IMG/VR virus record: IMGVR_UViG_3300028588_000820
From: a virus
DNA length: 64,000 nt
Strand: one strand, 5' to 3'
The position numbers and the translations under genes are program-made. How positions within the stretch are numbered: position 1 is the first letter of the stretch; each line of letters begins with the position of its first letter. The notes beneath the pieces are model-generated. The model did not search any database, was not told the DNA's origin, and saw nothing but the letters and a program-made list of their open reading frames with translations. Of the stretch, positions 2,566-63,941 are shown piece by piece.

Positions 2566-2594
2566 TGTACATTTCCTAAAAGTTTGGATATTAT
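2566..2594 (+). promoter_or_regulatory. Early promoter TGTACA-N17-TATTAT
   Basis: Same architecture as five other copies in the window. Confidence 0.75.
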
Positions 2595-2644: not shown

Positions 2645-2971
2645 ATGTCGAAAGCCACCAACGCTACCTACAAGAACGCCAACGCTAACTTCAAGCTGCC
2701 AGTTCTGCTGAAGCGCCTGACCGAAGCCCTGACCGGCTGGAACTTCGAAGTGAAGAAAGTGGAAGTTCGTCGTGGTGAACTCGTCGTCGACTGCGCCTGC
2801 GAATTCAACCCGCCATGGAACGAGCCGCTGCGTGGTATGGTCTCGGCCAAGGAAAAGGTCGGTGTCCGCACCAACAAGTGGAAGCTGAGCCTGGCCCGTG
2901 GCCTGAGCAACACCGAAATCGCCGCGGTCAAGGAACATGTCACCAACCTGCTGAGCGGCAAAGCAGCGTAA
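2645..2971 (+). CDS. Hypothetical early protein
   Basis: AAGGAG RBS, early promoter upstream, GC-rich codons (11 of 12 Leu are CTG). Confidence 0.8.
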   Translation: MSKATNATYKNANANFKLPVLLKRLTEALTGWNFEVKKVEVRRGELVVDCACEFNPPWNEPLRGMVSAKEKVGVRTNKWKLSLARGLSNTEIAAVKEHVTNLLSGKAA

Positions 2972-2977
2972 TTTCAG

Positions 2978-3006
2978 TGTACAGAACTTAAAGTTCTAGT
3001 TAGAAT
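2978..3006 (+). promoter_or_regulatory. Early promoter TGTACA-GAACTTAAAGTTCTAGT-TAGAAT
   Basis: 17-nt spacer carrying the AGAACTT-A-AAGTTCT palindrome. Confidence 0.75.
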
Positions 3007-3038
3007 AGCTACATATTCAAACACACACTGGAGTTACC

Positions 3039-3443
3039 ATGCAAGCAGCAATCGCCATGATCGTCGCCGAGCGTCAAGTTAACATCGACGGTGAAAAGTT
3101 CACCGCAACAATTGACCGGTTCATCCCGTTAGTCAAGGACTTCGTTCCAACGCTCGACGACATCAAGGCGGCCTATATCGCAGACGACATCCTCGAGATG
3201 ACCGTCGTTGAAGGTGTCACCATCATTCATGACTGGTACTTCGTCAAAGCCTACGCCGCAAAGCTGGGTTGCGAGATGTTTGATGTGGAATATGCCGAGA
3301 CCGGTGCTGTGCTGAAACACTTCGCAGAACAAGTTGGTTGTTCGTATTACGCTGCACCAAAGGAAGATTTCTACATCTTCAAAGGTGTTGTGCTAGCTCA
3401 GACGGAAGGTAAGAAGTATGTCATTGTGGAAAATATGTCGTAA
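3039..3443 (+). CDS. Hypothetical early protein
   Basis: GGAG RBS, own promoter, ends at a bidirectional terminator. Confidence 0.75.
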   Translation: MQAAIAMIVAERQVNIDGEKFTATIDRFIPLVKDFVPTLDDIKAAYIADDILEMTVVEGVTIIHDWYFVKAYAAKLGCEMFDVEYAETGAVLKHFAEQVGCSYYAAPKEDFYIFKGVVLAQTEGKKYVIVENMS

Positions 3444-10939: not shown

Positions 10940-12868
10940 TTAGACTAGATCGACGCCTAGACCCATCACAACAACTTTGCAAGCTAGTGCGACGTTGAAG
11001 GTCACGGTTAGCTGGGTAGCTGAGTCGAAGATGACTGCTTGTGGGATGATCTGCTCGTTGGTTTCAGAGTCGATCACGGTCACGTTGCAGAAACGGCTAC
11101 CGATGTTGTGAACAACAGCGTGTGAAGTAGCTTCCACACCGTCGTATAGGAAGTAACCTTTAGCTAGCTTAGCAGCAAGTGCAGCTTCTGCTTCGGTAGC
11201 GCGGGTAACTTCGGTTGCTAGATCAGCAGCGATTGCTTTCTCTGCAGTGTCAGCACGTAGTGCTTCAGCAGCGATCGCATCAGCGTTAGCTAGTTCAGCA
11301 GCTTCAGCACGCACCTTTTCAGCAGCGATAGCGTCAGCATTTGCCTTTTCAGCAGCTTCAGCGCGGACCTTTTCGTCAGCAACCGCAGTAGCGTTTGCAG
11401 CGATAGAAGCCACGACAGCGTCGGAGACCTTGATACCACCAGTGCCACGGGTGATGGTGTTGCCATCTAGCTTCACAGCTAGTTGAGCCGCGGTACCGGT
11501 TGAATCGGTTGAGCCATCTTCGGTTAGGAATAGACCACCAGTGCCTAGAACGTCGACACCAACTTCATCCGATGGTAGCTGTGCAATACCAGCACCTAGG
11601 TTAACGTCGATTTGGTTGCCGTTCTTTGATAGACCAACACCAGCAGCAAGCTGACCACCGCCAGTGAACTGGACGAATTGTGGAACCACACCACCGGCGT
11701 CGGCGCTGTAGACCATATTGACCACGTAACCGGTTTCGGTATCCTTAGCGAAGAATGCATCGCCTTCTTTTAGCTCAACGGTGTCTAGTGCAGCGATGCC
11801 ACCAGGTTCGCCGTAGAACTTAGCGTTATCAAAGACGTAAATCTTGTTGGTTTCTAGCACAGCGATACGAGTACCGTCAATGTAGCTCTCAGCTAGACCG
11901 CCATTAGCGAGTTCTAGAGTTTCTGGAGAGAAATCAACCGCCTTCAACCATGATAGACCAGCTAGTAGGTTGTCAACGTAGTTCTTGCTTGCTGCGTCGT
12001 CAGCTTGAGTTGGAGCAGCAAGACCGATGATCTTGTTACCACCCATTGCCAACTGACCAGTCATCGAGTCACCAGCTTTGGAGACTTTTAGGTCGATTGC
12101 AAGTTGTAGTGCAGTCTTAGCAGCTTCTAGGTCAGCCGAAGCTTCGCCTTCTGCAGCTAGACGAGCTAGGATTTCTTCAGCTAGGTCGTCAGCGATTGCT
12201 TGTTCAGCAGCTTCTGCGCGATCCTTTTCTGCGGTCACTAGGCCTTCGATGCGAGCTTCTTCACCGGTTGCACGAGTAACTTCAGCAGCTAGGTCGGTAG
12301 CAGCTTTGTCAGCGGTCGCCTTAACAGCGTCGATTTGACCTTGGACTGGAGCAGTCACGCCAACTAGGTGGTTGACTTCAGCAGCGGTTGCGGTCACATC
12401 GGAGATGTCAGCTAGGACTGGAGTGTGGTTGATCCACTTACCAGAGACAGCGTCGAAACGTAGGAACTGACCAGTACCAGGTGCGTTTAGCGCAACATCT
12501 AGTAGCTTGGATAGTGAGTCCTTACCAGCGACGGAATCGCCTAGTTTGTTGATTGCATCAGTGATGCTTGATGCAGCAACTGCGGTGATAGCACCAGCGT
12601 TGAAGCCACCAGTTGCGGTGATTGCGCCGCCTAGGGATGCTTCTAGGTTGTCAACTTCGGTCTGTAGGCTTGCTGCGTCACCACCAGTAGCTAGGGCAAC
12701 CCATGCCAAACCAGTGTTCATGTAGAACAGCTTGTCGACAGTGTTGTAGATCAAACGACCGGCTTCAGCAGCGTGGAAAGTTGGAGTAGCGGCTAGGCGC
12801 TCAACAACTAGATTCTGAACTTCTGATTGACCAAGTGCGTTTAGGGTAATGTTGCCATTAAATTTCAT
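10940..12868 (-). CDS. Long coiled-coil fibre protein with C-terminal 'HNL' module
   Basis: AEVTRAT/AEKVRAEAAE heptad repeats, 'DAASKNYVD' fibre motif, strong CTA codon bias, AAGGAG RBS. Confidence 0.75.
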   Translation of the reverse strand: MKFNGNITLNALGQSEVQNLVVERLAATPTFHAAEAGRLIYNTVDKLFYMNTGLAWVALATGGDAASLQTEVDNLEASLGGAITATGGFNAGAITAVAASSITDAINKLGDSVAGKDSLSKLLDVALNAPGTGQFLRFDAVSGKWINHTPVLADISDVTATAAEVNHLVGVTAPVQGQIDAVKATADKAATDLAAEVTRATGEEARIEGLVTAEKDRAEAAEQAIADDLAEEILARLAAEGEASADLEAAKTALQLAIDLKVSKAGDSMTGQLAMGGNKIIGLAAPTQADDAASKNYVDNLLAGLSWLKAVDFSPETLELANGGLAESYIDGTRIAVLETNKIYVFDNAKFYGEPGGIAALDTVELKEGDAFFAKDTETGYVVNMVYSADAGGVVPQFVQFTGGGQLAAGVGLSKNGNQIDVNLGAGIAQLPSDEVGVDVLGTGGLFLTEDGSTDSTGTAAQLAVKLDGNTITRGTGGIKVSDAVVASIAANATAVADEKVRAEAAEKANADAIAAEKVRAEAAELANADAIAAEALRADTAEKAIAADLATEVTRATEAEAALAAKLAKGYFLYDGVEATSHAVVHNIGSRFCNVTVIDSETNEQIIPQAVIFDSATQLTVTFNVALACKVVVMGLGVDLV

Positions 12869-14300: not shown

Positions 14301-15281
14301 TTAACGAGTTGCGGCAACGTAGTAGACAGGAGCCTGAATGCCTACGTTAATGGTTTTTTGTGACTCAACCGTTCCAATCATTTGAACAACACCAGATGGA
14401 GGTGGAGTTAAAGTAATCTGACCAGTCTCGCCGCAGAAAAGTGGCTTACCAATTGAATTCGACGGAAAGTTCCATTGCTCGTTAAAGACCACACCAGTGG
14501 TGATCAAGCGAGAAACGTCGCCCATGTACATGTCTTCAGCAACAATACCGTTGATGATCAGCTTAGTGTTTGAGTAGCGTCCAAGCATGACTGTTCCGGC
14601 TGCCGCGATCGAAACGCATGAGTATGCAGGAATGTACTCTGCCGCCTTGACATACGTCAATAGGGTTTCAAACTGGATTTGGGAATGGGTATTGTTCCCG
14701 GCTGCCTGGATATGGAAATTTGTTTCTGTGGTTAGGAAGGTTCCATCGGCTGCACGCAACGGCTTTAATTGGTCATCAAATAGAATCGTACCAGAAACGC
14801 CTTGAGTCTTATCGCCAATTTGTGAACCCAAGAATTGCGGACGAATGATTGCGTTATCACCGTACACGCCAGCAAACACACGAATCTTAATGACCCATGA
14901 ATGTCCGCTATAAACCTTCATTTTGTTAGACGACAAATCAAACCAATGCTGATCTCGTTTTGGATGCTTTGGCGCGTTTGGTCCAACAAACGGTGGATGA
15001 AGGGTGTAACCTCTTGATAGGACTCCGGTTAAGGTGTCGATGTCCCAGAACAAATACTGAGTTTCGGCCTTTGGTTGGAATGGTCCCCATGCGCGGATGA
15101 TCGGTTTAGTTTCTTCAATTGTGTAGTTAGCACTGCCATGCGCAAAAGTGATGACGCAAGGATCAGGCTGGACATTGAGGTCTAGGTACCTATCGTCGTT
15201 TGCCGAAACCACAAGATATTGTGGTGCGCCATTCGAGTCCGCTTGGTATCTAATAATTCCTTGTCGGAAAGCGGTCTTCAT
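14301..15281 (-). CDS. Virion structural protein
   Basis: AGAGGA RBS, GATAAATA at 15322-15329; first gene of the fibre operon. Confidence 0.6.
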   Translation of the reverse strand: MKTAFRQGIIRYQADSNGAPQYLVVSANDDRYLDLNVQPDPCVITFAHGSANYTIEETKPIIRAWGPFQPKAETQYLFWDIDTLTGVLSRGYTLHPPFVGPNAPKHPKRDQHWFDLSSNKMKVYSGHSWVIKIRVFAGVYGDNAIIRPQFLGSQIGDKTQGVSGTILFDDQLKPLRAADGTFLTTETNFHIQAAGNNTHSQIQFETLLTYVKAAEYIPAYSCVSIAAAGTVMLGRYSNTKLIINGIVAEDMYMGDVSRLITTGVVFNEQWNFPSNSIGKPLFCGETGQITLTPPPSGVVQMIGTVESQKTINVGIQAPVYYVAATR

Positions 15282-15364
15282 TTAAAGTCCTCTTTGTTAT
15301 GTTATATGGTTATGGTCTTTCTATTTATCTGGATCGATCTTTTCTAAAAATTTGCAAATTCTTG

Positions 15365-15393
15365 TGTACAAAACTTAAAAGTTGATGTATTAT
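15365..15393 (+). promoter_or_regulatory. Early promoter TGTACA-N17-TATTAT
   Basis: Spacer AAACTTAAAAGTTGATG. Confidence 0.75.
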
Positions 15394-42055: not shown

Positions 42056-42301
42056 TTAAAGCATGATCACAGTGCGTGGGTCATCTTTCGCGTTCTTCAT
42101 TGCCTTATTGATGAATGAAGCAACTACCTCTCGCTCACCTGCACTCATAGCCATCACCTCGGTATATGACAAGCCACCTCGCATGTAGTACACCAATTCG
42201 GTTGCTGAACGGAGAATGGCTCGTGTCTCGCTTCCCAATTGAGCAATATAGGAACCGATTTGCTCACCATTCCCGCCTTTAATTATCCTGAAAAAAAATT
42301 T
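42056..42301 (-). CDS. gp51-like extension, probably reached by -1 frameshift from the upstream gene
   Basis: The frame is open from the slippery AAATTTTTTTT to TAA 42056, with no ATG/RBS at its 5' end; 'YYMRGGLSYTEVMAMSAGERE' chaperone-type motif. Confidence 0.65.
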   Translation of the reverse strand, partial: KFFFRIIKGGNGEQIGSYIAQLGSETRAILRSATELVYYMRGGLSYTEVMAMSAGEREVVASFINKAMKNAKDDPRTVIML

Positions 42302-43080
42302 ACTGGATTAAGTGGCAGTTCAACAATCATCTTTTGGCCGCAATCACGGCACACGACTTCTTGTTCAAACTTAGGACCCCATTCATTTGAGGTATCCAAT
42401 GCATTAGCGATAGCGCCAATGTATGGCGCTGGAGCGCTGACGATCCATTCCTGAATCATTGCCTTATCGGTGATGCCATCGATGTCAGCGATCATGTTCA
42501 GCAAGTTCTGGATCATGTTACGCTGAATGTCTTCAGCAGTAGGTAGGTCCTTGTTATTTGCTTGCATCAATTCCACGACGGTCTTGAAGCGAATTGGGTC
42601 TAGCGTTACGACCTGACCATTTGGCAGATTGACCGCATAGCGCTGTCCGATAGTGGTTGGGTCGAGTTGACGAATAGCGTTGATGATGCCTTCGATGTCG
42701 ATCACATAGCCATGCACGCTTGAATCTGGTTGGCAGCCATGGTCTGCTTCGATGCGGAACTCTGGACCATAGGTAACCACACGTAGGAAGCACATTAGCG
42801 CATCAACGTCACGACCGAATAGTTCATCTGGCTTCTTGATTTCTTCGACGCATTCTGCTAGGACTTCACGAACGGCTTGGCCTGAGAATAGCATATCAGG
42901 ATTCTTCATCTTGATTTCGGCTAGTGCCGACATTGGGCGAACATGAACCTCACCATCCTTGCATGACTCGCTTAGCTCGCCATTCTTGTAAAGATAGCCA
43001 CCAGATGGTAGTCGGAAGATACGACCTGGCATTTTGATTTTGGACATCAGCGGATTTGCTGATGGAGTGACTTGTTCCAT
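42283..43080 (-). CDS. gp26: Baseplate hub assembly / tape-measure chaperone (T4 gp26-like)
   Basis: 'RLPSGG..Y', 'VRPMSA..E', 'D+DAL..LR..TYG', C-terminal CxxC and 'NPVNFF'. Confidence 0.75.
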   Translation of the reverse strand: MEQVTPSANPLMSKIKMPGRIFRLPSGGYLYKNGELSESCKDGEVHVRPMSALAEIKMKNPDMLFSGQAVREVLAECVEEIKKPDELFGRDVDALMCFLRVVTYGPEFRIEADHGCQPDSSVHGYVIDIEGIINAIRQLDPTTIGQRYAVNLPNGQVVTLDPIRFKTVVELMQANNKDLPTAEDIQRNMIQNLLNMIADIDGITDKAMIQEWIVSAPAPYIGAIANALDTSNEWGPKFEQEVVCRDCGQKMIVELPLNPVNFFSG

Positions 43081-47422: not shown

Positions 47423-49072
47423 ATGGGACAGTGGACTCAGTACTACAAAATTATTAAGCCAGCTCCTCCAAAGGATGCATATGTCGCTCGCGATTCGTAT
47501 GATGCGAATAACGAAGCGACCATTGCAAACTTCAGCTGGTACACCCAAGTGATGAAGGGTGCTGGTACGCGTATGACTCGCTATAACCAGTACAACATGA
47601 TGGATGCTGACGTTGACATCTCTCGCGCATTGGATACCATTGCGGAAGAAATTTCGACTAAGGACGATCAAACCGAACTTCCATTCAACATTCACTATCA
47701 AAACGACGACAACAAGGAAGTTAAAGAGTCGATCGTCATGACCGTGAAGGCTGCACTACGCCACTGGGCTGACGTACAAGACTTGGAGAACCGAATCTTC
47801 CGTACGGCACGTTATGCGATTAAGTTCGGCGACTGCTTCTTCCGTAAGTTCTCCGACCACAAGAAATGGGTGTTCGTTGAGCCAACCGAAGTGATTGGTA
47901 TCGAGATGGACAACAAAGGCGAAATCGTGGCTTACCACCTTCGCAAGAACGATAACAAGAAGGGCTCTTACGACGAGGTCGAAGTCATTCCAAAAGAAGG
48001 TATCGTTCACTTTACTTTGTCCGACGATATGGGTGAATCTGCTCCATTCGGTGAATCAGTTCTACAGAGCGTGACCAAAGCTTTCAAACAGCTAGGTCTG
48101 TTGGAAGACTCGATCGTTATCTACCGTGTGGTTCGTGCACCGGAACGTCGTGTGTTCTACATCGATACTGGTAACATGCCTGCTCACAAGGTGAAGCAGT
48201 ACCTAGAGAGCGTGAAGAACGAAGTTCGTCAGAAGCGTATCCCGAATGGACAAGATGGACAAGATTCGATTGACTCAGTCTATAACCCAATTTCGGCAGC
48301 TGAAGATTACTTCTTCTCGACGTCAGCAAATGGTCGTGGTTCACGTGTTGAAACCCTACCAGGCGGCGATCAGCTAGGTGAGAACGGTGACTTGCTATAC
48401 TTCCAAGAGAAAGTGTTCCGCGGTCTACGTGTTCCAACCTCGTACATGAAGGGTGCTGATGCCCAAGGTGCACAGGTCAATGACGGTAAAGTCGGTATCG
48501 CTTACATCGAAGAATTGCGCTTCGCAAACTTCGTTAAGCGTCTGCAAAACAAGTTGGAGAAGGTGTTCGATCATGAGTTCAAAGTTTACTTAGAACATTC
48601 AAACATCAAAGTTGATCCAAATCTGTTTAAGCTGAAACTACCTGATCCACAGAACTTCGCGCTATATCGTCAGGCTTCACTTAACGCTGACCTTGTTGCT
48701 ACGTTCAACTCGATCCAAGAAGTACCATTCATTTCCAAACGTGTTGCTCTACGTGACTACCTAGGATGGGATGAAGACAAGATTCAGACTAACGAAGCGT
48801 TGCTACGTCAAGAACGTAAAGTGCCTGAAACTGCAGAGTTTGAAGACATCACTGACCTACAAATGTTCTACGATCCAGCATTCTACGAAAACCGCGAGCC
48901 GGTGAAGTATGAAGCACCGGAAGAAGGTGAAGGAGATATGGACATGGAAGGTGAGGAAGGTGAAGAGGACACCGGTTCAGACGACGGTGGTCTACCAGAC
49001 GACAGCGTTGAAACTGATGCTCCAGAGGAAGAACCAGCTCCACCATCTGGTAAAGCTGCAGCAGAAAGCTAA
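47423..49072 (+). CDS. gp20: Portal protein
   Basis: 'LLEDSIVIYRVVRAPERRVFYIDTGNMP', 'EDYFF...RGSRVETLPGG' and 'LRVP.SY'. Confidence 0.95.
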   Translation: MGQWTQYYKIIKPAPPKDAYVARDSYDANNEATIANFSWYTQVMKGAGTRMTRYNQYNMMDADVDISRALDTIAEEISTKDDQTELPFNIHYQNDDNKEVKESIVMTVKAALRHWADVQDLENRIFRTARYAIKFGDCFFRKFSDHKKWVFVEPTEVIGIEMDNKGEIVAYHLRKNDNKKGSYDEVEVIPKEGIVHFTLSDDMGESAPFGESVLQSVTKAFKQLGLLEDSIVIYRVVRAPERRVFYIDTGNMPAHKVKQYLESVKNEVRQKRIPNGQDGQDSIDSVYNPISAAEDYFFSTSANGRGSRVETLPGGDQLGENGDLLYFQEKVFRGLRVPTSYMKGADAQGAQVNDGKVGIAYIEELRFANFVKRLQNKLEKVFDHEFKVYLEHSNIKVDPNLFKLKLPDPQNFALYRQASLNADLVATFNSIQEVPFISKRVALRDYLGWDEDKIQTNEALLRQERKVPETAEFEDITDLQMFYDPAFYENREPVKYEAPEEGEGDMDMEGEEGEEDTGSDDGGLPDDSVETDAPEEEPAPPSGKAAAES

Positions 49073-49141: not shown

Positions 49142-49768
49142 ATGAGCCAACTCGTACTAATCGAAAATCTAGCGCCAAATCAGGCTAAGATCATCGAAGA
49201 AAGCACCAGCGATGGTAAGAACCATTACCTCAATGGCATCTTCATGCAAGCTGAACTACAGAACGGCAACGGCCGTATCTATCCTCTAAACGAGATCGCT
49301 GCCGCTGTTGACTATGCGCAGAAGCGTATCACCGAAGGTCACTTCATTGCTGGTGAACTAAATCACCCGAACGATCTTCAAATCAACCTTGAGCGTGTCT
49401 CACACGTCATCACCGAAATCCGCATGGACGGCAACAACGCTGTCGGCAAAATGAAGCTACTAAACACCCCAATGGGTGTGCTCGCTAAGAACCTACTCGA
49501 CGGTGGTCTAAAGCTAGGCGTGTCATCACGCGGTAGTGGTTCAGTGACCGAAGGCAAAGTGAACGGCTTCAACTTCCTAACCGTTGACATCGTCGCTACC
49601 CCATCAGCACCAGACGCTTACCCAGAATCAATCCGCGAAAGCCTCGAAATGGCAAAGAACGGCAAGGAACTAAAAACCCTAGCTGAAGCTGTCATTCACG
49701 ATCAAGCTGCTCAGAAATACCTAACAAAAGAAATCGCTGCGTTCATCGCCGCACTAACCGGTCGTTAA
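49142..49768 (+). CDS. gp21: Prohead protease
   Basis: 'NGNGRIYP', 'GELNHP', 'GVSSRGSGS' and 'VDIVATPSAPDAY'. Confidence 0.95.
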   Translation: MSQLVLIENLAPNQAKIIEESTSDGKNHYLNGIFMQAELQNGNGRIYPLNEIAAAVDYAQKRITEGHFIAGELNHPNDLQINLERVSHVITEIRMDGNNAVGKMKLLNTPMGVLAKNLLDGGLKLGVSSRGSGSVTEGKVNGFNFLTVDIVATPSAPDAYPESIRESLEMAKNGKELKTLAEAVIHDQAAQKYLTKEIAAFIAALTGR

Positions 49769-50652: not shown

Positions 50653-50995
50653 TATAAATATCATTACACAAACACTATAACAAATAGGAGTCATCAAGAT
50701 GGACAAGAAAGAATACCTCAAGTCAATGCTAACCAACATGGTTCACGACCGCGACGAAGAAGCAACTGTGGACTTCCACCAGTATCTCCAAGTGAAGATG
50801 CGTGAAATCGTTACTCCAGCTACCGCTGCTCCAACTGCTAAAGTTGATGAGTCGAACAAAGCCGTCACCGAGTAAAAAATGTCAGGAGAATTTTCAGATT
50901 CTCTATAAATATTTAACAACAACGGTTCCATGATTGTTGTTAATGTGTGAGGTGCCAGAAAAATCCACAAGAAATTTTCCGCACCTCTATAAATA
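50653..50995 (+). promoter_or_regulatory. Three perfect late promoters (TATAAATA at 50653, 50904, 50988) upstream of core/scaffold/capsid genes
   Basis: Exact T4 late consensus; each copy is directly preceded by an inverted repeat. Confidence 0.8.
50699..50875 (+). CDS. Small prohead core protein (gp67-like position), 58 aa, absent from the ORF track
   Basis: AGGAG RBS, TATAAATA 50653-50660; reads MDKKEYLKSMLTNMVHDRDEEATVDFHQYLQVKMREIV... Confidence 0.7.
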   Translation: MDKKEYLKSMLTNMVHDRDEEATVDFHQYLQVKMREIVTPATAAPTAKVDESNKAVTE

Positions 50996-51032: not shown

Positions 51033-51917
51033 ATGGAAGAAATTCTAAACAAACTGTTGGAATCTGAACTCCTTAGCGAAGACACTAAAGCTCAAATCAC
51101 TGAACAGTTCCAAGCTGGCGTTCAAGCGATGCGTGAAGAACTTGCTTTGGAAGTCCGTGCTGAGCTAGTTGAACAGTACACCAAAGATCGTGAAGCTCTA
51201 GTTGAAAGCATCGATGAAAAACTCGAAGCTTTGCTAAAGGAAGAAATGGCTGAATTCTCAGACGACGTCGCAGCTTTCCGCGATCTAGAAGTCGAAATGG
51301 CAGCTAAGCTAGTTGAAGAAAAGAAAGCTCTAGCTGAAAAGCTAGGCGAAGAACTAGATCAGATCGTTGACAAGCTAGACACCTTCCTCGAGTACCGTAT
51401 CGAAGAAGAAATGTCAGAATTCAAGGATGACCTTGAAGTTGTCAAAGAAAATCAGTTTGGTCGTAAGATTTTCGAATCCTTCATGTCCGAATTCAACAAG
51501 TCATTCGTTGACGAAGACTCACTCTTCAAGAAGATTTCAGTTCTAGAAGACAAGCTTTCAGATGCAGAAACCCGTCTATTCGAATCAGAACAGGCTGAAA
51601 AGAAAGCAAACCGCGTTAAGAAACTAGATGAAGTTCTAGCACCTCTATCAGGTGTCAAGCGCGAACAAATGGCTCTGATTCTACAAAATGTAGAAACCAG
51701 CAAGCTACAAGAAGCGTACAACCGTTTCGTCGGCCGTATTCTTAAAGAAGACGTCCAAGAGAAAAACACCTTGACCGAGTCAAAAGAGACCGCCAACGTC
51801 GTTAAGACTGGTGACACTCTCGAGGAAGGTACTAAGGAAGTTAAAGCAGAACCAGTCGCAAAACAGGGTCTAGCTACAATCAGAATGCTTAGCCTCGCCG
51901 GTGTTAAAGCACAATAA
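51033..51917 (+). CDS. gp22: Prohead scaffold/core protein
   Basis: Acidic coiled coil, 'FGRKIFESF', many L/I-x-E-S sites, directly before the capsid gene. Confidence 0.85.
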   Translation: MEEILNKLLESELLSEDTKAQITEQFQAGVQAMREELALEVRAELVEQYTKDREALVESIDEKLEALLKEEMAEFSDDVAAFRDLEVEMAAKLVEEKKALAEKLGEELDQIVDKLDTFLEYRIEEEMSEFKDDLEVVKENQFGRKIFESFMSEFNKSFVDEDSLFKKISVLEDKLSDAETRLFESEQAEKKANRVKKLDEVLAPLSGVKREQMALILQNVETSKLQEAYNRFVGRILKEDVQEKNTLTESKETANVVKTGDTLEEGTKEVKAEPVAKQGLATIRMLSLAGVKAQ

Positions 51918-51946: not shown

Positions 51947-53152
51947 ATGGAACTTTTCGAAAATTGGTCAGAAACTAAACAAGCACTTCTTGGTGGCTTG
52001 TCAGAGCAGAAGAAAGCAATCGTTGCTCCTCTGCTAGAGAACCAAAAGCAGCACCTAATTGAATCCGCAGCTGCTGGCGTTACCGCCGCTGGTGCGATCA
52101 GCAACTTCCAGAAGATCGTCATTCCGATGATCCGTCGTATCATCCCAGGTACCATCGCTTCCGAACTAGTCGGCGTTCAGCCAATGTCCGGTCCAGTGGG
52201 TCTAGCGTACTCCCTACGCTTCCTATTCTCGCAAGGTCTAGCAACCGGCGACACCCACACCGATATCGCTGCTGGTACTGAACTATTCGCAAACAACAGC
52301 AAGACCAAGCGTTTCTACTCCGGTGGTACCGCTGACGTCGGTGGTGTTGAGACCGCAACCGGTCTAGCAGGTTCAACCTCAGAATTCGAAGCTTTCGGTG
52401 GCCGTCAGCTACAACTAGAAGTCTTGAAGCAAACTGTGACCGCTGGCTCACGTAAGCTACAAGCTAAGTGGTCAGTCGAAGCAATGCAAGACCTAAGCTC
52501 ACAGCACGGTCTTGATCTAGAAGCAGAAATCACCTCAGCTCTATCAGCAGAAATCGTGTCGGAAATCGACAACGAAATCCTAAATGACCTACGTCTACTA
52601 GCTGGTACCGTCGAGACTTTCGACATGGCTTCAACCAGCTTCACTGGTACTCCACACTACGTTGGTGACCGCTTCGCAGTTCTAGGCGTGCTAATCAACA
52701 AAGTGGCAATGGAAATCGCTCGTAAGACCCGTCGTGGTGCTGCAAACTTCATCGTGGTGTCCCCACTAGTTGCTTCAGTCCTACAATCAGCAAGCAAGGC
52801 AGTGTTCGCTCCAGCTGTGCAAGGTTCGTTCGAAGGTCCAAACAACACCAAGCTAATCGGTACCCTAAACGGTTCGATCAAAGTTTACACCTACATCTAC
52901 CACGATCAGGGCACTGAACCAATCGTGATGGGTTACAAAGGTGGCAATGGTGAGATGGATACTGGTTACTTCTACTGCCCATACATCCCATTGATGTCAA
53001 GCAATGTCGTTATCGACCCAACCACTTACAACCCACAAGTCAGCCTAATGACTCGTTACGGTAAAGCGACCTTCGTCGACACCGCAACCAGCCTAGGTAA
53101 CTCAGCTGACTACTACGGTCGTATCAACGTGGCTAACCTATCCTTCATCTAA
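51947..53152 (+). CDS. gp23: Major capsid protein
   Basis: 'LLENQ', 'VGVQPMSGPVG', 'SRKLQAKWSVE..QDL', 'YFYCPYIPL' and 'MTRYG'. Confidence 0.97.
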   Translation: MELFENWSETKQALLGGLSEQKKAIVAPLLENQKQHLIESAAAGVTAAGAISNFQKIVIPMIRRIIPGTIASELVGVQPMSGPVGLAYSLRFLFSQGLATGDTHTDIAAGTELFANNSKTKRFYSGGTADVGGVETATGLAGSTSEFEAFGGRQLQLEVLKQTVTAGSRKLQAKWSVEAMQDLSSQHGLDLEAEITSALSAEIVSEIDNEILNDLRLLAGTVETFDMASTSFTGTPHYVGDRFAVLGVLINKVAMEIARKTRRGAANFIVVSPLVASVLQSASKAVFAPAVQGSFEGPNNTKLIGTLNGSIKVYTYIYHDQGTEPIVMGYKGGNGEMDTGYFYCPYIPLMSSNVVIDPTTYNPQVSLMTRYGKATFVDTATSLGNSADYYGRINVANLSFI

Positions 53153-53495: not shown

Positions 53496-54356
53496 TTACT
53501 TACTGAACTCGCGATGGTATGCATCAGCGTCTTTGGTCTTAGCCAACTTAAACGCCTTCTTGATTTCGTCAGCCATTTCTTTCTCAGTGACTTCAGTCTT
53601 CAGATTCATCCATGCTTGCGGTGAACGTGGCACGTCGAAGGAACCGAAGTGACGTTTGAACACACCTTCACCAGATGGCATGTAGAAGATTTCCATACGA
53701 TTGCCATGCTTGATGTTGCCACCGCCTTTAGGAGTGTGAAGCACCGCGAGGTGAACGTATTTGCTGGATGCGCTGACCGAAGCCGAAACTTCCCAAGTCT
53801 TCCCATCCAGATCAAACTCGCGCGACACTTTGTCCAAATTCAGTTTGGCAACAGCTTCCTTAGCGATTTTCGGATCGATGTTCTTGAAGTCGAAATCGTC
53901 CTTATGCTTTTTGTTCATCTTTTCGATGAACGCTTCGACGTCATCAACTTCGTGGTAGCCGCTGCTCAAGCCACTGCTGGAGTCGATGTAATATTCACCA
54001 CTGCCGAACTTTTTGTCGGTGTTATACAGCTTAACCGAGCCAGTGATCTTGTCGTAGCGATACTGCACCATCGCATCCTTTGGATCGCCTTTACGGACAT
54101 TGATTTTAGTAATCTTGCCCTTCACCAAGGCGTAGTTGCCGATGGACATACTGTACAGCGTGTAGACATCCTTGCCGACATCTTTCTCGGTGAGCTTTTC
54201 GATGTTGATGCGCTTAATGCGACGTGCATCATCGGCATCATCACTGCAAAGGATGAACGCGTCCTTCTCCACTATCGGAGCAAAGACTTTTGGTGCATCA
54301 TCTTCATCGTCATAACGGGATTCGTTCAACGACAGAAGTTCTTGAATTAGGTTCAT
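53496..54356 (-). CDS. Hypothetical late protein, candidate internal head protein
   Basis: GATAAATA 54384-54391, N-terminus MNLIQELLSLNES, flanked by terminator hairpins. Confidence 0.75.
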   Translation of the reverse strand: MNLIQELLSLNESRYDDEDDAPKVFAPIVEKDAFILCSDDADDARRIKRINIEKLTEKDVGKDVYTLYSMSIGNYALVKGKITKINVRKGDPKDAMVQYRYDKITGSVKLYNTDKKFGSGEYYIDSSSGLSSGYHEVDDVEAFIEKMNKKHKDDFDFKNIDPKIAKEAVAKLNLDKVSREFDLDGKTWEVSASVSASSKYVHLAVLHTPKGGGNIKHGNRMEIFYMPSGEGVFKRHFGSFDVPRSPQAWMNLKTEVTEKEMADEIKKAFKLAKTKDADAYHREFSK

Positions 54357-54436
54357 ATTTTTTCCTATAATATGGGATGCTAGTATTTATCAAATAGTAT
54401 CCCATACAGCAAAAAGACTCCCGAAGGAGCCTTTTG

Positions 54437-54742
54437 CTATTTCATTTCACGTTCCAGCTTTTCTTTCAGTTCGCTAATCAGCACCTTCTGCTCATCAGCG
54501 TTCCAGGTGTTGTACGCGATCAGCAGTGGCGAGAAGTGCTCACCATTGATGTTGATGTTGTCGAAGCCGCCATTGGTCTTCAGGAAGATACTGATCGTTC
54601 CTTCGGCGTTGCCTTCGGAATCATCCAGCAACTCTTCGAGGTCCACCTCCTCGATGTTCTCGAAGGTCAGCAGATTCAGCAGATTGCGATCGCCTTCGAT
54701 GGTGTTGGTGCCGAGACTGATGTTCAGGGTATTCCACTTCAT
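54437..54742 (-). CDS. Hypothetical early protein
   Basis: AAGGA RBS, CTG-type codons. Confidence 0.7.
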   Translation of the reverse strand: MKWNTLNISLGTNTIEGDRNLLNLLTFENIEEVDLEELLDDSEGNAEGTISIFLKTNGGFDNININGEHFSPLLIAYNTWNADEQKVLISELKEKLEREMK

Positions 54743-54757
54743 GTCGTATCCTTTTAG

Positions 54758-54988
54758 TTATGCGAAGAAGTCCGAAGCATCGTGACCAAATGCATAACCG
54801 TTCTTCTTGCACCAGTCGCCCCACAGGCCTGCTTCCTTCATTTGATCCTTGGCATCGTCGTATGCATCAACGACCCGGTACACTGACTGGCAGATAGTCC
54901 GATAGCGTTTGGTCGCGTTCTTCAGCGTGTCGCGCTTGCGATCCATTTTCTTGATCAGCTTCTGCTTTTCGATTTCAGACAGTGCCAT
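54758..54988 (-). CDS. Hypothetical early protein
   Basis: ATG 54988 with AAGGA RBS, downstream of the early promoter at 55023-55051. Confidence 0.7.
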   Translation of the reverse strand: MALSEIEKQKLIKKMDRKRDTLKNATKRYRTICQSVYRVVDAYDDAKDQMKEAGLWGDWCKKNGYAFGHDASDFFA

Positions 54989-55022
54989 ATTATTTTCCTT
55001 CAAGTTCTGTGTCGATAGATTC

Positions 55023-55051
55023 ATTATACACAGAACTTGAAGATGTGTACA
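55023..55051 (-). promoter_or_regulatory. Early promoter TGTACA-N17-TATAAT
   Basis: Spacer CATCTTCAAGTTCTGTG. Confidence 0.75.
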
Positions 55052-55055
55052 TCAA

Positions 55056-55244
55056 TTAAGCAGACTTGATGAATTTGTTGTCGATCAGGTGTTTCCACAG
55101 ATCAGGGTATTTTTGTTCGATCCCGTCGATTTCGCCATCGTATTCGGCATCACCTGGACCAACCCAAACCTTTGCATTTGGTCCAGTCAGTTCGACGGTG
55201 TAGCGACCGAAGTTCACTTCAGCCGTCATGTAGCCTTTCTTCAT
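55056..55244 (-). CDS. Hypothetical early protein
   Basis: TAATG coupling with the upstream gene; GGAGG RBS. Confidence 0.65.
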   Translation of the reverse strand: MKKGYMTAEVNFGRYTVELTGPNAKVWVGPGDAEYDGEIDGIEQKYPDLWKHLIDNKFIKSA

Positions 55245-55648
55245 TACAGCACCTCCGTCAGTTCTTTGGCGAAGGCCAAGACATCGGACTTCAGCGGAGC
55301 TGGGAAGTCGGTAGCTGCCGAGGTGGTCGACATCTTCTTACGCAGTTCTTTGTGGAACTCGAACTTGGCAAACATCGGCTTGGTGGTATCGAAGTGGAGA
55401 CGATCACCGATTGCGAAGTAGACGCCTGGACGATCTTCCTCTTCCACTGCTACTGTGACCGTGATGTCCTTGACATCGCATTCCTTGGTCAGAGTAGTGA
55501 TCACCGCGACCTTGACGCGAGGCTCGCTGGTGTTAAAGAAGTTCGAAGCCAAAGCATTGGTCTTGTGGAACATCGCATCATTTGGGGCACCGAATGCTTT
55601 TTCCAGGGTTTCCATTACTTGGCGAGCCAGACGATTTTGGTTTTTCAT
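55244..55648 (-). CDS. Hypothetical early protein
   Basis: AAGGA RBS after the early promoter at 55680-55708. Confidence 0.7.
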   Translation of the reverse strand: MKNQNRLARQVMETLEKAFGAPNDAMFHKTNALASNFFNTSEPRVKVAVITTLTKECDVKDITVTVAVEEEDRPGVYFAIGDRLHFDTTKPMFAKFEFHKELRKKMSTTSAATDFPAPLKSDVLAFAKELTEVL

Positions 55649-55679
55649 GATGTTCCTTCAAGTTCGTTTCGATAGAGAC

Positions 55680-55708
55680 ATTATATCCAGAACTTTAAGT
55701 TCTGTACA
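55680..55708 (-). promoter_or_regulatory. Early promoter TGTACA-GAACTTAAAGTTCTGGA-TATAAT
   Basis: Near-identical to the copy at 2978. Confidence 0.8.
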
Positions 55709-55715
55709 ATATTTT

Positions 55716-55916
55716 TTAGTCGCCGATCAAAGATTGTTTGACTGCATCGAGAGTCGGCAACACTTCACCGAGGTGCTTTTTGGAAATCTGGTACTGCCAG
55801 CCATCACGTACGCGATAGATCGTGCCGGTTTTCTTCGGCTTGCGATTCCCGTCGGCCAGGAATACATCGACCACGAGACCAATCTTTTCTACTTGGCGAT
55901 CTTTGAAGGTTACCAT
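55716..55916 (-). CDS. Hypothetical early protein
   Basis: GGAG RBS. Confidence 0.65.
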   Translation of the reverse strand: MVTFKDRQVEKIGLVVDVFLADGNRKPKKTGTIYRVRDGWQYQISKKHLGEVLPTLDAVKQSLIGD

Positions 55917-55931
55917 ATTCAGCTCCGATAA

Positions 55932-56183
55932 TTATTTGAGACGTTCCACTTTGAAGTAGGTCGCGTTCGAATCGCCTTCAATCGTGTTTTTCAGCCATCC
56001 AGCAACTTTGCCGGATTTCAGGAGGATGTGGCTGGTTTCGAATTCGGCGACATTGGTGACTTGAGGAATCTCACGGCCATTCTTCTGGATGGTCATCAGC
56101 ATGATCAGGCGCAGCTTGAAGGCACCTGCATCTTTTTCGGCTTTGATCGCTTTGGTGATGTCTTTCAGCATGGTCGTGGTCAT
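55932..56183 (-). CDS. Hypothetical early protein
   Basis: AGAGGA RBS after the early promoter at 56220-56248. Confidence 0.7.
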   Translation of the reverse strand: MTTTMLKDITKAIKAEKDAGAFKLRLIMLMTIQKNGREIPQVTNVAEFETSHILLKSGKVAGWLKNTIEGDSNATYFKVERLK

Positions 56184-56219
56184 GTTTGTTTCCTCTTTAA
56201 AGCATTTGTCGATGTAGCT

Positions 56220-56248
56220 ATAATATCAAGTAACTTGAAGAATGTACA
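56220..56248 (-). promoter_or_regulatory. Early promoter TGTACA-N17-TATTAT
   Basis: Spacer TTCTTCAAGTTACTTGA. Confidence 0.75.
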
Positions 56249-56256
56249 ATTCTTTT

Positions 56257-56466
56257 TTAAGTTTTTTGATGATCCCGCTTTTGACGGATCACATCAACCT
56301 TCAGATGCACCTCAGGGTCACACGAGCAATAGTCACAGACTATCACCTTCCGAATCAAATTGCCGTTCCCTCGGACGCACCTGCGCTTCCCAAAGCATAT
56401 GTCGCATTGACGCCCCAGACTTTGCAGGAATGCGTAGTACTTCTTCTTGATGTCACGTACTTTCAT
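56257..56466 (-). CDS. Small Cys-rich basic protein (possible Zn finger)
   Basis: CDIC...CDYC; AGGAG RBS. Confidence 0.55.
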   Translation of the reverse strand: MKVRDIKKKYYAFLQSLGRQCDICFGKRRCVRGNGNLIRKVIVCDYCSCDPEVHLKVDVIRQKRDHQKT

Positions 56467-56528
56467 TTCAATTCTCCTATAACAAAAAGGAGGCCGAAGC
56501 CTCCTTTCTATTCTACACCTGCCTTGGA

Positions 56529-56984
56529 TTACAGGGCAGCGATCATTGCCTCGATTTCGGCCGGGGTCTTCGAAGCCAGGTCACCGGCACGTGCTGCAGC
56601 CAGCGCCTGTTCCAGTTCCTTCTTGCGAGTCGCCTTGGCGGATGCTTCCAGCTTGGTCGCGTTCTCGGCTTTGCGGGTATCGATCACGTGGCGGACGATG
56701 TCGAACTTCAGCTGGGTAGTGGTGTCGGTCGAGGTGGTCTCGCTGACGAACGACATTTCTTCATTGTCACGCAGCTTGCGGAACAGGGTGACGGCGATCT
56801 TGTCCAGGCTTGCCTTGTTTTCGCTTTGCAGCGGCAGGTCCCACAGGTCTTCGACCGACAGCTGGCCACCGTTCGGGTTGTCGAAGCGCAGCTTCTTGCG
56901 GGAAGCCACTTCGAACATGTTGATGGCGGTCGCTGCGACAGCGGTTTCGTTGGTTGCGGCGGTAGCGGTAGCTTGAGTGTTCAT
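56529..56984 (-). CDS. Conserved phage hypothetical protein (partner of the 695-aa protein)
   Basis: 'MFEVASRKKLRF...GQLSVEDLWDLPL' followed by a coiled coil; AAGGA RBS. Confidence 0.75.
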   Translation of the reverse strand: MNTQATATAATNETAVAATAINMFEVASRKKLRFDNPNGGQLSVEDLWDLPLQSENKASLDKIAVTLFRKLRDNEEMSFVSETTSTDTTTQLKFDIVRHVIDTRKAENATKLEASAKATRKKELEQALAAARAGDLASKTPAEIEAMIAAL

Positions 56985-57001
56985 GGTGTTTCCTTTTCGT
57001 T

Positions 57002-60831: not shown

Positions 60832-61236
60832 TTAGTCCAGGAACACGATACGTGCAGTACCGGTCTGTGCTTTGTTGAATGTGATAGTGATGGTGTCACC
60901 ATCATTGATCTTGATCGAGTCCGGGAAGATCACAGATTTTGAATCGTCGAAGCATTGAACAATCGCATTCTCGGAATCAAAGTTGTGAGTGACAACCCAT
61001 TCGGTCGAACCTTCAGCCACCGGAACAATCGCCTTTCGGATACCGTTACCAGCAAGATTCATACCAACTAGTTGACCGTTGACGCGAGCTAGAACCTGAC
61101 CATCTTCTAGAGTGACTGCATCAAACTGACGAGGACCAGCGCCACGACGAACGATGATCGTCTCTTGAGGAACGTCACTATCCAGATAACCACGTTTAGG
61201 AAGTTCTGTCTGGATAAAAGTTTCAAATTGACTCAT
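60832..61236 (-). CDS. Virion protein with C-terminal 'HNL' module
   Basis: 'EWVVTHNFDSENAIVQCFD...IFPDSI...TITITFNKAQTGTARI'. Confidence 0.7.
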   Translation of the reverse strand: MSQFETFIQTELPKRGYLDSDVPQETIIVRRGAGPRQFDAVTLEDGQVLARVNGQLVGMNLAGNGIRKAIVPVAEGSTEWVVTHNFDSENAIVQCFDDSKSVIFPDSIKINDGDTITITFNKAQTGTARIVFLD

Positions 61237-62888
61237 TATGCCACCTCTTCAATTTCTAGTTGTAGAGTACCTGAAGTGTTTGAACCAGCGAAGTCAGCAT
61301 CAGTGATGAACAGATAGCTACCAGTTGGATTGTAAACGCCGGCGCCATCGGTGATGGTGAAGCCTTGCTGGGACTGCGAGGTATCGCTACGTAGGGTTAG
61401 ATTGCTTGCAGTACCTGCGTACTTAGCATTCACCTTGGTAATGTCATTGATTGGAGTACCAATGTCGACATATTGAGCAAATGCTGGGAAGGTCAAGGTA
61501 CGACGAACGAAACCACCGACGGTGTAGTTAGCACCCGAAGTGATGGTTGAGCCAACAACATTTGCTAGGCCGGTTAGGACTAGATTGCTGAAGGTCTGTG
61601 CGCCATCAACGTCGGAATCCTTGATCACAAGAGTGCGTGAGTACACACCACCAGAGAAGGTCCATGAACCTGTCCAAGTGCCGCTTGACGCGTCCAATGA
61701 AGGGATTGCGTTCAATAGCTGGTTAGCAGTGATGCGAACGGTATATGACTGGCCATCCGGTGAGGACACTAGACGAGCTGGGTTACCGACGATCGAGATT
61801 GCTGCGGTTGCCGGAGCGTTAGCGATAGAGACTGTGGACGATGCAGTAGACACTGCGCCGTTTGAAGCCTTGGTTGCGGTGATGGTGTAGTTGTTAGTAC
61901 CAACCACGTAGTTACCAGCAACACGAGTCACGGTCTTGGTAGCACCGTAAGTAGTTGAATCAGCAACAGACAGGTCTGCACTGGTGGTGTAAGCCACGGT
62001 ATCCGCGTTAGTCACGGTTGCTGCAACGGTCGCGGCTTCAGAACCCTTCAATGCTGATTGACCAACTGGGTAGGTGATCGTGCGAGCACCGATGGTTGGG
62101 AAGGTCTGGTTTAGAGTGATCGAATTCGATGACTGGAAGTTAGCACCGAAAGTACCTAGCGCATTGCGTGCACGAGCGGTAACCTTCTGTGAACCAGATG
62201 CGGTACCGACGGTAAAGGTACCAGTGAAAGTCTTAAAGCCAGCACCAGCAGAATCTGCAGCGCCAAGGCCAAGGATCGAGACAGCTTTTGAAGCGCCACC
62301 GGCAACGATTTCAACATAAGTTGCAGCATTAGCAACAACGCCAGACACTGACATCACGTCATTGTTCTTAGCTTCGGTCTGAGCACCAGGGTACGCACCG
62401 ATAGTTAGAGCTGATAGCGCTGGGCCAACTTCTGCAACCTTTACGATGCAAGTTGCTTCCGCATTGGTGCTCGACTTAGCGGTAACGACCGTGTCAACGG
62501 TCACGCCAACTAGGTCCACATAACCAGCGAACATGCGCTTGTCATACGTGTCTTCGGATAGGGCAACAGTGAATGGGGAACCTGGAAGTGCAGGAACGGT
62601 GGTGATAGTAATGGTCGGGGAGTAGAATGCGGAACCGCCTTCTGCAACTAGCGAGACGCGGACGTTCTGAGTGTCAGCGGTACCATCGATAATAACTTTG
62701 TTTGCTGGGACGGTGTTAGCAACATATTTCTTGTTGCCCACGATACCAGAAGAGGTTGGGGAGATGTCGGTAAAGAACACGCCTCCAACGATTGCGCCAG
62801 ATACGATCTGCTGATCAACGTAATGCTTGGTAGCAATTTCTTGCGGTTGAGTAGGATCGGTAGTAGTGGTGCTTTGATAAATCTTCAT
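61236..62888 (-). CDS. Ser/Thr/Ala-rich beta-sandwich virion surface protein
   Basis: ATG 62888 with AGGAG RBS, GATAAATA 62933-62940, 'ATKHYVD' fibre motif, Ig-like strands. Confidence 0.7.
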   Translation of the reverse strand: MKIYQSTTTTDPTQPQEIATKHYVDQQIVSGAIVGGVFFTDISPTSSGIVGNKKYVANTVPANKVIIDGTADTQNVRVSLVAEGGSAFYSPTITITTVPALPGSPFTVALSEDTYDKRMFAGYVDLVGVTVDTVVTAKSSTNAEATCIVKVAEVGPALSALTIGAYPGAQTEAKNNDVMSVSGVVANAATYVEIVAGGASKAVSILGLGAADSAGAGFKTFTGTFTVGTASGSQKVTARARNALGTFGANFQSSNSITLNQTFPTIGARTITYPVGQSALKGSEAATVAATVTNADTVAYTTSADLSVADSTTYGATKTVTRVAGNYVVGTNNYTITATKASNGAVSTASSTVSIANAPATAAISIVGNPARLVSSPDGQSYTVRITANQLLNAIPSLDASSGTWTGSWTFSGGVYSRTLVIKDSDVDGAQTFSNLVLTGLANVVGSTITSGANYTVGGFVRRTLTFPAFAQYVDIGTPINDITKVNAKYAGTASNLTLRSDTSQSQQGFTITDGAGVYNPTGSYLFITDADFAGSNTSGTLQLEIEEVA

Positions 62889-63005
62889 TTGTCTAGCTCC
62901 TGAGATAATTGATTGATATGGAAATATCAGCTTATTTATCCAGGAAGCTATAAGGAAACGCAAAAAGGAGCCCGAAGGCTCCTCTAAGATCGAAACGAAT
63001 TTTTC

Positions 63006-63557: not shown

Positions 63558-63941
63558 TTAGATTGGCAGATGGTGGATGATGGTAACATTTTTGAAGCGT
63601 TCGGTACGAGCCGCTTCTTCAGCTTTACGCTTCGCAACAAACTTCTCGTTCAGCGAAACATAGCCGAACTTCTCGGCCAGACCATACGGCGTTTCCTTGT
63701 AGTCGGCCAGAGCAGCCAGGACTTCAGTGGTGGTCATGCGGTTCAGGATGAACTTGATCCAATCCTTGGCGCTGGCCTTTGCTGCACGATACTTGAAACG
63801 AGCGACGACTTTCGGACGCGGTTCTCCTTCGACGTTGAAGAGGACATAGACTTCACCGCGACCATCGATGCGACCAACTTCTTTGCCATCGACGAGGATG
63901 ATGCTTTCGTTGAAGGTCACTTTGTTTGGTGCTTTAGCCAT
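63558..63941 (-). CDS. Hypothetical early protein
   Basis: GGAG RBS; early-type -10 TATAAT at 63978-63983 with the CTCTATCGAAACGAA leader. Confidence 0.75.
   Translation of the reverse strand: MAKAPNKVTFNESIILVDGKEVGRIDGRGEVYVLFNVEGEPRPKVVARFKYRAAKASAKDWIKFILNRMTTTEVLAALADYKETPYGLAEKFGYVSLNEKFVAKRKAEEAARTERFKNVTIIHHLPI

Follow-up and report, generated by a model that had tools for sequence, protein, structure and literature searches.

In bacteriophage T4, genes fall into early and late codon classes, and the phage-encoded transfer RNAs (tRNAs) are matched to the late genes. These codon-usage classes are said to have been described by Cowe and Sharp in 1991 and by Kunisawa in 1992. T4 infection also cleaves a host tRNA-Leu that reads CUG, and T4's own leucine (Leu) tRNA reads UUA and UUG, not CUA. 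In this study, we analyzed a 64,000-nucleotide (nt) stretch of DNA from a virus, IMG/VR record IMGVR_UViG_3300028588_000820, which is referred to below as the window. Its gp23-type major capsid protein gene and other virion genes are written mainly with the Leu codon CTA, whereas a few genes behind a different type of promoter use CTG.

The window resembles T4 in that codon use appears to follow expression time, in its T4-type late promoters and gp23 capsid, and in tRNA genes matched to the late codons, found here in the relatives of the phage. It differs from T4 in that the choice is nearly binary at one amino acid (CTG versus CTA) and limited to Leu, serine (Ser) and proline (Pro). A similar picture is seen in the Rak2-like enterobacterial jumbo phages GAP32, cultured with Cronobacter, and Sharanji, in which the capsid gene uses ~80% CTA and no CTG and a few CTG-rich genes lie elsewhere. 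Unlike Sharanji, which has no tRNA-Leu gene, the closest relatives of the window carry two tRNA-Leu(UAG) genes.

It has been reported that early and late phage genes differ in synonymous codon use (Mioduser et al. 2017, PMC5683454) and that phage tRNAs chiefly serve late structural genes in Sf14 (PMC12482277). The expression classes were known in those two studies, whereas here they are assigned from promoters, and neither study reported a clade-wide co-variation of virion-gene codons with a given tRNA gene. In the available portions of the reports on the jumbo phages XacN1 (PMC5852040) and RsoM2USA (PMC8504454), codons and tRNAs were compared at the whole-genome level only. Those portions describe neither an early/late split nor a CTA dialect of virion genes, though both are very strong in XacN1; the portion on XacN1 does suggest that host tRNAs may run short (PMC5852040). 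Early and late codon classes are already known in phages, and the window is an unusually sharp case.

Results

The capsid gene (51947-53152) contains 36 Leu codons, namely 28 CTA, 4 CTT, 3 TTG and 1 CTG. In the small gene at 2645-2971, 11 of 12 Leu codons are CTG and none is CTA. A first-pass annotation of the window had made these counts by hand, and every one was exact. It had also set gp21, gp22 and a fiber gene at 10940-12868 (CTA, TCA and CCA) against an early cluster at 54437-59089 (CTG, TCG and CCG). The counts agreed with this contrast, Ser and Pro included, and gp21 was confirmed as an S77 protease, but the gp22 (scaffold) label of 51033-51917 has a weak PHROG match as its sole basis. 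When four virion genes were pooled, CTA made up 109 of 153 Leu codons, and in a pool of eight CTG-type genes CTG made up 98 of 122, with a single CTA. The TCA/TCG counts were 38/7 in the virion pool versus 2/35 in the CTG-type pool, and the CCA/CCG counts were 26/2 versus 15/22.

A two-class test was then performed with genes sorted by promoter or function, never by codon. The CTA/CTG counts were 248/47 in virion genes versus 2/52 in early-promoter genes (Fisher p = 1.2e-31), a codon split far beyond chance. The same classes differed in TCA/TCG (p = 9e-4) and more weakly in CCA/CCG (p = 0.013). No class difference was detected for GCA/GCG (p = 0.85), GTA/GTG (p = 0.8), GAA/GAG (p = 1) or CAA/CAG (p = 1). 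The pools of virion and CTG-type genes have preferred codons in common elsewhere (TTC, ATC, TAC, CAC, GGT/GGC, CGT/CGC, GAA and AAG), and therefore both classes look translationally optimized. They differ only at a few tRNA-specific choices, as an exchange of A for G at Leu, Ser and Pro.

The split follows promoter class, since the CTG genes lie behind sigma-70-like promoters and the CTA genes behind T4-type late promoters. The T4-type late promoter word TATAAATA occurs 9 times in the window versus 0.9 expected. The scaffold-capsid operon has either this word or ATAAATA upstream, as do the genes for protease and portal and the large tail genes. A sigma-70-like element, TGTACA-N17-TATWAT, has 6 sites versus 0.06 expected, every one of them intergenic, with a conserved CTTAAAGTT spacer and a common leader. 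It is located upstream of the CTG-rich genes at 2645, 3039, 54758, 55244 and 55932. Beyond the -35 and -10 boxes, these early-type promoters keep the spacer and a GCTACATCG or TCTATCGAAAC leader (2566-2620, 2978-3030, 55655-55708 and 56195-56248), which suggests a putative regulator binding site or processing signal.

Behind late promoters, the CTA share of Leu codons ranges from ~10% to 80%. It is highest in the capsid, protease, scaffold-like and fiber-like genes, and large low-copy tail proteins have mixed Leu codons. Within the late class, the CTA share thus increases with the expected abundance of the product. The most extreme bias in the window is that of the 642-amino-acid (aa) virion gene at 10940-12868, in which ACA, GTA and GGA are all absent. 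The protein is likely to be made in large amounts, perhaps as a fiber or a head decoration. A C-terminal module is common to this gene and those at 10241-10843 and 60832-61236.

The window apparently derives from a jumbo myophage of the gp23 type, with Ralstonia phage RsoM2USA and Xanthomonas phage XacN1 as near relatives. Its T4-type genes for capsid, portal and prohead protease form one module, and it is syntenic with RsoM2USA and two of the other complete relatives, G001 and G002 (G numbers are labels of this analysis). The nearest cultured relative is RsoM2USA, a Ralstonia jumbo phage with 68% capsid identity, followed by the Xanthomonas phages XacN1 and Xoo-sp13. The closest complete relative is G001, with 80% capsid identity. 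An identical capsid protein is present on a 287-kb ENA contig, and 65 related capsid loci were found in IMG/VR, several of them on complete genomes of 340-370 kb. Many of these 65 capsid genes (loci L053-L114) have one dominant Leu codon, which depends on the lineage (CTA, CTG, CTT, CTC or TTG/TTA). The capsid locus L055 combines CTA at 26 of 34 Leu codons with 19 TCG and 1 TCA, which shows that the choice at Leu need not go with that at Ser.

We investigated the same split in complete relatives, whose genes were called with a simple codon model and divided by their own sigma-70-like promoter versus ATAAATA. In G001, the CTA/CTG counts were 413/93 in late and 46/74 in early genes (p = 8e-20). 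The corresponding counts were 124/90 and 8/45 in RsoM2USA (p = 1e-8), and 371/55 and 55/277 in XacN1 (p = 3e-91). Ser and Pro shifted in parallel in G001 and RsoM2USA, and glutamate (Glu) did not. In XacN1, Leu codons of the 66-kb terminal repeats, where tRNA genes are located, are 45-59% CTG and 3-10% CTA, and CTA makes up 36-54% in the structural region. Of the 111 CTG-rich genes of XacN1, many lie inside the terminal repeats. In the relatives examined, late genes use CTG below the genome average. The switch between early and late codons that the first-pass annotation proposed is thus borne out as a split that tracks promoter class and recurs in three relatives, with its timing assigned provisionally from promoter motifs.

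The first five Leu codons of the capsid gene had also been said to avoid CTA. They read CTT, CTT, CTT, TTG and CTG, after which CTA takes 28 of 31 positions. In G001, 4 of 5 codons show the avoidance. RsoM2USA and Sharanji do not show it, and when CTA-rich genes are pooled it is only a weak trend at gene starts. A CTA-avoiding ramp at gene starts was rejected as a conserved feature on these grounds.

The first-pass annotation had called for a search for tRNA-Leu(UAG), tRNA-Ser(UGA) and tRNA-Pro(UGG). No tRNA gene was found in the window, but all three are encoded by the nearest complete relatives, which have no tRNA-Leu(CAG). As determined with ARAGORN, RsoM2USA has 46 tRNAs, including two Leu-UAG and the Leu anticodons CAA, GAG and UAA, without Leu-CAG, and G001 has 45 tRNAs with two Leu-UAG and no Leu-CAG. 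The supplementary table of the RsoM2USA paper matches the ARAGORN set (PMC8504454). In the Ralstonia host of RsoM2USA, CTA occurs 3.15 and CTG 22.02 times per 1000 codons, and Leu-CAG is encoded by two host genes and Leu-UAG by one (PMC8504454 supplement). The first-pass annotation had stated that CTA is usually the rarest Leu codon in Proteobacteria, and this Ralstonia uses CTA rarely.

Codons of orthologous virion genes were compared with tRNA genes in ten complete relatives. In those with Leu-UAG and without Leu-CAG (G001, RsoM2USA, XacN1, Xoo-sp13 and GAP32), 39-65% of virion-gene Leu codons are CTA, reaching 83% in the GAP32 capsid. In the Leu-CAG carriers (G002, G003, G004, G007 and G008), the CTA share is 4-16%. 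G003, with two tRNA-Leu(GAG) genes, favors CTC. Co-variation was also seen at other amino acids: more CAG accompanies tRNA-Gln(CUG), and more GCC accompanies tRNA-Ala(GGC). On the capsid tree there are two independent gains of Leu-CAG, both coincident with loss of the CTA dialect. When Sharanji was added, the best tracker of the pattern in all eleven phages was the presence or absence of a phage-encoded tRNA-Leu(CAG).

Other features were observed around the tRNA genes of the relatives. G001, RsoM2USA and GAP32 each carry an amber-suppressor tRNA, which has the anticodon CUA and is labeled 'Pyl' by ARAGORN, and the available portion of the XacN1 paper reports two CUA-anticodon tRNAs (PMC5852040). 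The tRNA clusters of G001, RsoM2USA, G003 and G004 contain a gene for a ~97-aa protein with the two-cysteine peptide NYKCVHCD (L153:9233-9523, which is G001 129233-129523; RsoM2USA 107578-107889). It has 191 homologues, all unannotated. A 353-kb ENA scaffold found via this protein was considered as the phage of the window and judged to be another phage, with a GC content of 0.41 versus 0.48 and no match in two sequence comparisons. In G001, two tRNA-Ser genes flank a gene for a GIY-YIG/NUMOD homing endonuclease (L154:8366-9055, which is G001 148366-149055). Its paralogue at 132459-133124 and its relatives, which number in the thousands, indicate mobile elements within the tRNA array. A permuted transfer-messenger RNA (tmRNA) is encoded in G001 (156013-156450, tag ANDESYRVAA), G003 (14953-15296) and G004 (90242-90646). 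The tRNA-Leu genes of these three genomes follow the tmRNA on the same strand, at a distance of 12-21 kb.

Table 1. Promoter-like elements and genes of the window, with matches and codon counts.
Feature	Position	Strand	Matches, codons and context
T4-type late promoter, TATAAATA	50988..50995	+	before scaffold-capsid operon
Other TATAAATA copies	50904, 50653, 39913, 36275	+	
Other TATAAATA copies	26227, 17161	-	
Early-type promoter, TGTACA-N17-TATTAT	2566..2594	+	conserved CTAAAAGTT spacer
Early-type promoter variant, TGTACA...TAGAAT	2978..3006	+	
Early-type promoter copy	15365..15393	+	
Early-type promoter copy	55023..55051	-	
Early-type promoter copy	55680..55708	-	
Early-type promoter copy	56220..56248	-	
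Small early-type gene	2645..2971	+	CTG 11/12, CTC 1, CTA 0; GC content at third codon positions (GC3) 0.76; early-type promoter 51 nt upstream
Second early-type gene	3039..3443	+	behind variant of early-type promoter
Virion structural gene, 642 aa, fiber- or decoration-like	10940..12868	-	phrog_16122; CTA 48/59, CTG 1
Baseplate hub-like gene	42283..43080	-	phrog_150; CTA 10, CTG 4; CCA 14, CCG 1
Portal gene, gp20 type	47423..49072	+	Pfam Portal_T4, E = 2e-90; CTA 15, CTG 4
Prohead protease gene, gp21/S77 type	49142..49768	+	phrog_207, E = 4e-59; Peptidase_S77; CTA 15/22, CTG 0
Scaffold-like late gene	51033..51917	+	just 5' of capsid gene; CTA 18/36; TATAAATA 38 nt upstream
Major capsid protein gene, gp23 type	51947..53152	+	Pfam Gp23, E = 1e-93; CTA 28/36, CTG 1
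Run of six small early-type genes	54437..56183	-	pooled CTG 33, CTA 1; three early-type promoters within
Members of the run	54437-54742, 54758-55024, 55056-55244, 55244-55648, 55716-55916, 55932-56183	-	
Strongly CTG-biased gene	56529..56984	-	CTG 14/14
Strongly CTG-biased gene, 695 aa	57002..59089	-	CTG 38, CTA 0; GC3 0.77
Tail sheath gene	61236..62963	-	phrog_15433, E = 2e-110; CTA 16, CTG 3
Early-type gene	63558..63941	-	CTG 6, CTA 0; TATAAT and leader upstream as in other early-type genes

As shown in Table 1, the CTG-rich cluster at 53496-59089 lies between the capsid and sheath genes. It has no counterpart in G001, RsoM2USA or G002 and forms an accessory island within an otherwise syntenic structural module. 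The gene pair at 56529..59089 matches phrog_2018 and phrog_1735. No gene of the window is more strongly CTG-biased than that of the 695-aa protein, which matches phrog_1735 with E = 7e-255. Full-length homologues are present in at least 460 phage records (Vi1-like, Caulobacter, Proteus and Klebsiella phages), and the closest relatives are in Caulobacter phages. Sequence searches of Pfam, NCBIfam and PDB with this protein gave no match and hence no function. It represents a widespread phage family without an assigned function. Genes of the window end in TAA (59), TGA (8) or TAG (1), so that TAG is nearly absent.

Discussion

We propose that the window is written in two codon dialects that track the time and level of expression, and that the late dialect is matched to the tRNAs present in the infected cell. 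We consider this explanation moderately probable. It starts from what was observed directly: a codon split that is linked to promoter class, does not depend on GC content, recurs in relatives and co-varies with phage tRNA-Leu genes. Expression timing, tRNA levels and causal dependence would then be as follows. A few accessory genes behind sigma-70-like, presumably early, promoters use CUG, UCG and CCG, which in proteobacterial hosts are read by the abundant tRNAs Leu-CAG, Ser-CGA and Pro-CGG with C at position 34 (C34). Virion genes behind T4-type late promoters use CUA, UCA and CCA, and more so the more abundant the product. These codons are read by tRNAs with U at position 34 (U34), which in this lineage would normally be supplied by the phage, as with the two Leu-UAG genes and no Leu-CAG in the nearest relatives. 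If late genes use codons of U34 tRNAs and the phage supplies those tRNAs, late translation would be tuned to the pool of the infected cell and not to that of the healthy host.

Several points weigh against this explanation. The division into early and late genes is putative, as it was assigned from promoter motifs, and no clear early promoter was found in the sequence upstream of 57002-59089, the strongest CTG gene. The tRNA-Leu(UAG) of the window phage is predicted from relatives with 68-80% capsid identity. The relatives also carry tRNAs for ACA, GTA and GGA, codons that late genes scarcely use. When codons were scored by whether the G001 tRNAs serve them, the resulting index differed only modestly between the classes (0.74 versus 0.70), and the class signal sits in Leu, Ser and Pro, not in this general index. 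Across the clade, the co-variation of Leu-CAG gain and CTA loss is suggestive, with only two independent transitions, which are too few for a test.

The exception among the phages compared is the Escherichia coli phage Sharanji, which weighs in the same direction. Its capsid gene has CTA at 24 of 30 Leu codons and no CTG, and its record lists 7 tRNA genes, none of them tRNA-Leu. Between Sharanji and GAP32, 9 of the 29 conserved Leu positions of the capsid gene carry different codons, and each gene has 24 CTA. The exchanges are among CTA, CTT, TTA and TTG, and never involve CTG. Because the codons have turned over while the CTA total was kept, the preference is apparently maintained without a phage tRNA-Leu. 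The first-pass annotation had held that late proteins depend on a phage tRNA-Leu(UAG). Its gene is present in the nearest complete relatives, but Sharanji keeps CTA without any tRNA-Leu gene, and therefore the phage tRNA usually accompanies the CTA dialect and is not strictly needed.

Sharanji is accommodated by a possible though unlikely alternative, in which the loss of host C34 tRNAs drives the pattern. Leu-CAG, and perhaps Ser-CGA and Pro-CGG, would be cleaved, degraded or diluted in infection. Late genes would then have to avoid CUG unless the phage brings tRNA-Leu(CAG), and CUA would be read by a phage or host tRNA-Leu(UAG). The idea fits all eleven phages, Sharanji included. Virion genes have 0-10% CTG in the six complete relatives whose genomes lack Leu-CAG, and all five Leu-CAG carriers use CTG there. 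The capsid gene of the window, which is counted in neither group, has CTG at 1 of 36 Leu codons, and late genes are under the genome average for CTG. The cleavage of a host CUG-reading tRNA-Leu by T4 provides a precedent. The first-pass annotation had raised both a loss of host tRNA-Leu(CAG), an idea that the eleven phages keep alive, and an evasion of anticodon-nuclease defenses; both are conjectural. Nevertheless, no nuclease candidate was identified, the tree holds only two independent Leu-CAG gains, and co-evolution of codon use with the tRNA sets of the phages explains the pattern equally well. We put forward only tentatively, as an unlikely account of the whole group, that late genes avoid CUG, UCG and CCG as host C34 tRNAs, chiefly Leu-CAG, are destroyed or disabled in infection. 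If this were true, the codon dialect would be a widespread genomic footprint of host-tRNA inactivation that can be read from sequence, and a phage would need either its own tRNA-Leu(CAG) or virion genes that rely on CUA.

It is improbable that the CTG genes are recent horizontal acquisitions with the GC-rich codons of a donor, which would make the class uninformative on timing. No homologue of the 53.5-59.1 kb cluster or of the other CTG genes was found in G001, RsoM2USA or G002, the 695-aa gene has its nearest relatives in Caulobacter phages, and the CTG-rich genes of G001 and RsoM2USA include the bacterial-type TerC, vWA-TerF, radical SAM and PrkA. Some CTG genes may therefore be imports. 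However, CTG genes bear the phage-specific promoter and leader, in six copies, and their A/G ratios at alanine (Ala), valine (Val), Glu and glutamine (Gln) equal those of late genes. GAA, CGT and GGT stay frequent, unlike in an average GC-rich donor. XacN1, moreover, has its 111 CTG-rich genes and CTG-rich terminal repeats, and promoter-defined early genes are shifted as a class in three relatives. This last observation also bears on expression level as the sole cause, in which CTA would mark very abundant proteins without a true early/late division. The range of CTA shares behind late promoters, with its peak in capsid, protease, scaffold-like and fiber-like genes, agrees with that idea, but strongly biased genes behind early-type promoters pick CTG, not CTA, and even average early-promoter genes of G001, RsoM2USA and XacN1 are shifted to CTG relative to the late-promoter average. 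We regard it as quite improbable. Local base composition or strand bias is refuted by the codon-specific pattern and is extremely improbable. The CTA share does correlate negatively with GC3 (rho = -0.55), and the GC3 of early genes is higher, at 0.6-0.77. Yet the CTA share is unrelated to the use of A-ending codons in other four-fold families (rho = 0.08), ACA, GTA, GGA, ATA and TTA are almost missing from late genes, and both codon classes are found on both strands. In the capsid gene, only 16 of 155 threonine, Val, glycine, Ala and arginine codons end in A. Local GC content had been raised in the first-pass annotation as a way to account for CTA use; the Ala, Val, Glu and Gln ratios are unchanged between the classes and capsid GC3 is 0.50, and it is therefore excluded.

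Stage-specific codon tuning, as we propose it here, has in this window one of its cleanest sequence-only examples in a phage. What the comparison adds is a clade-wide rule, that virion Leu codons follow the phage tRNA-Leu(CAG) in ten complete relatives, together with the Sharanji exception. These results suggest that in metagenomic fragments the tRNA set of a phage may be predictable from its virion-gene codons, and the reverse. Cultured relatives could show what large phages gain from their many tRNA genes and whether infection depletes the tRNAs of the host.

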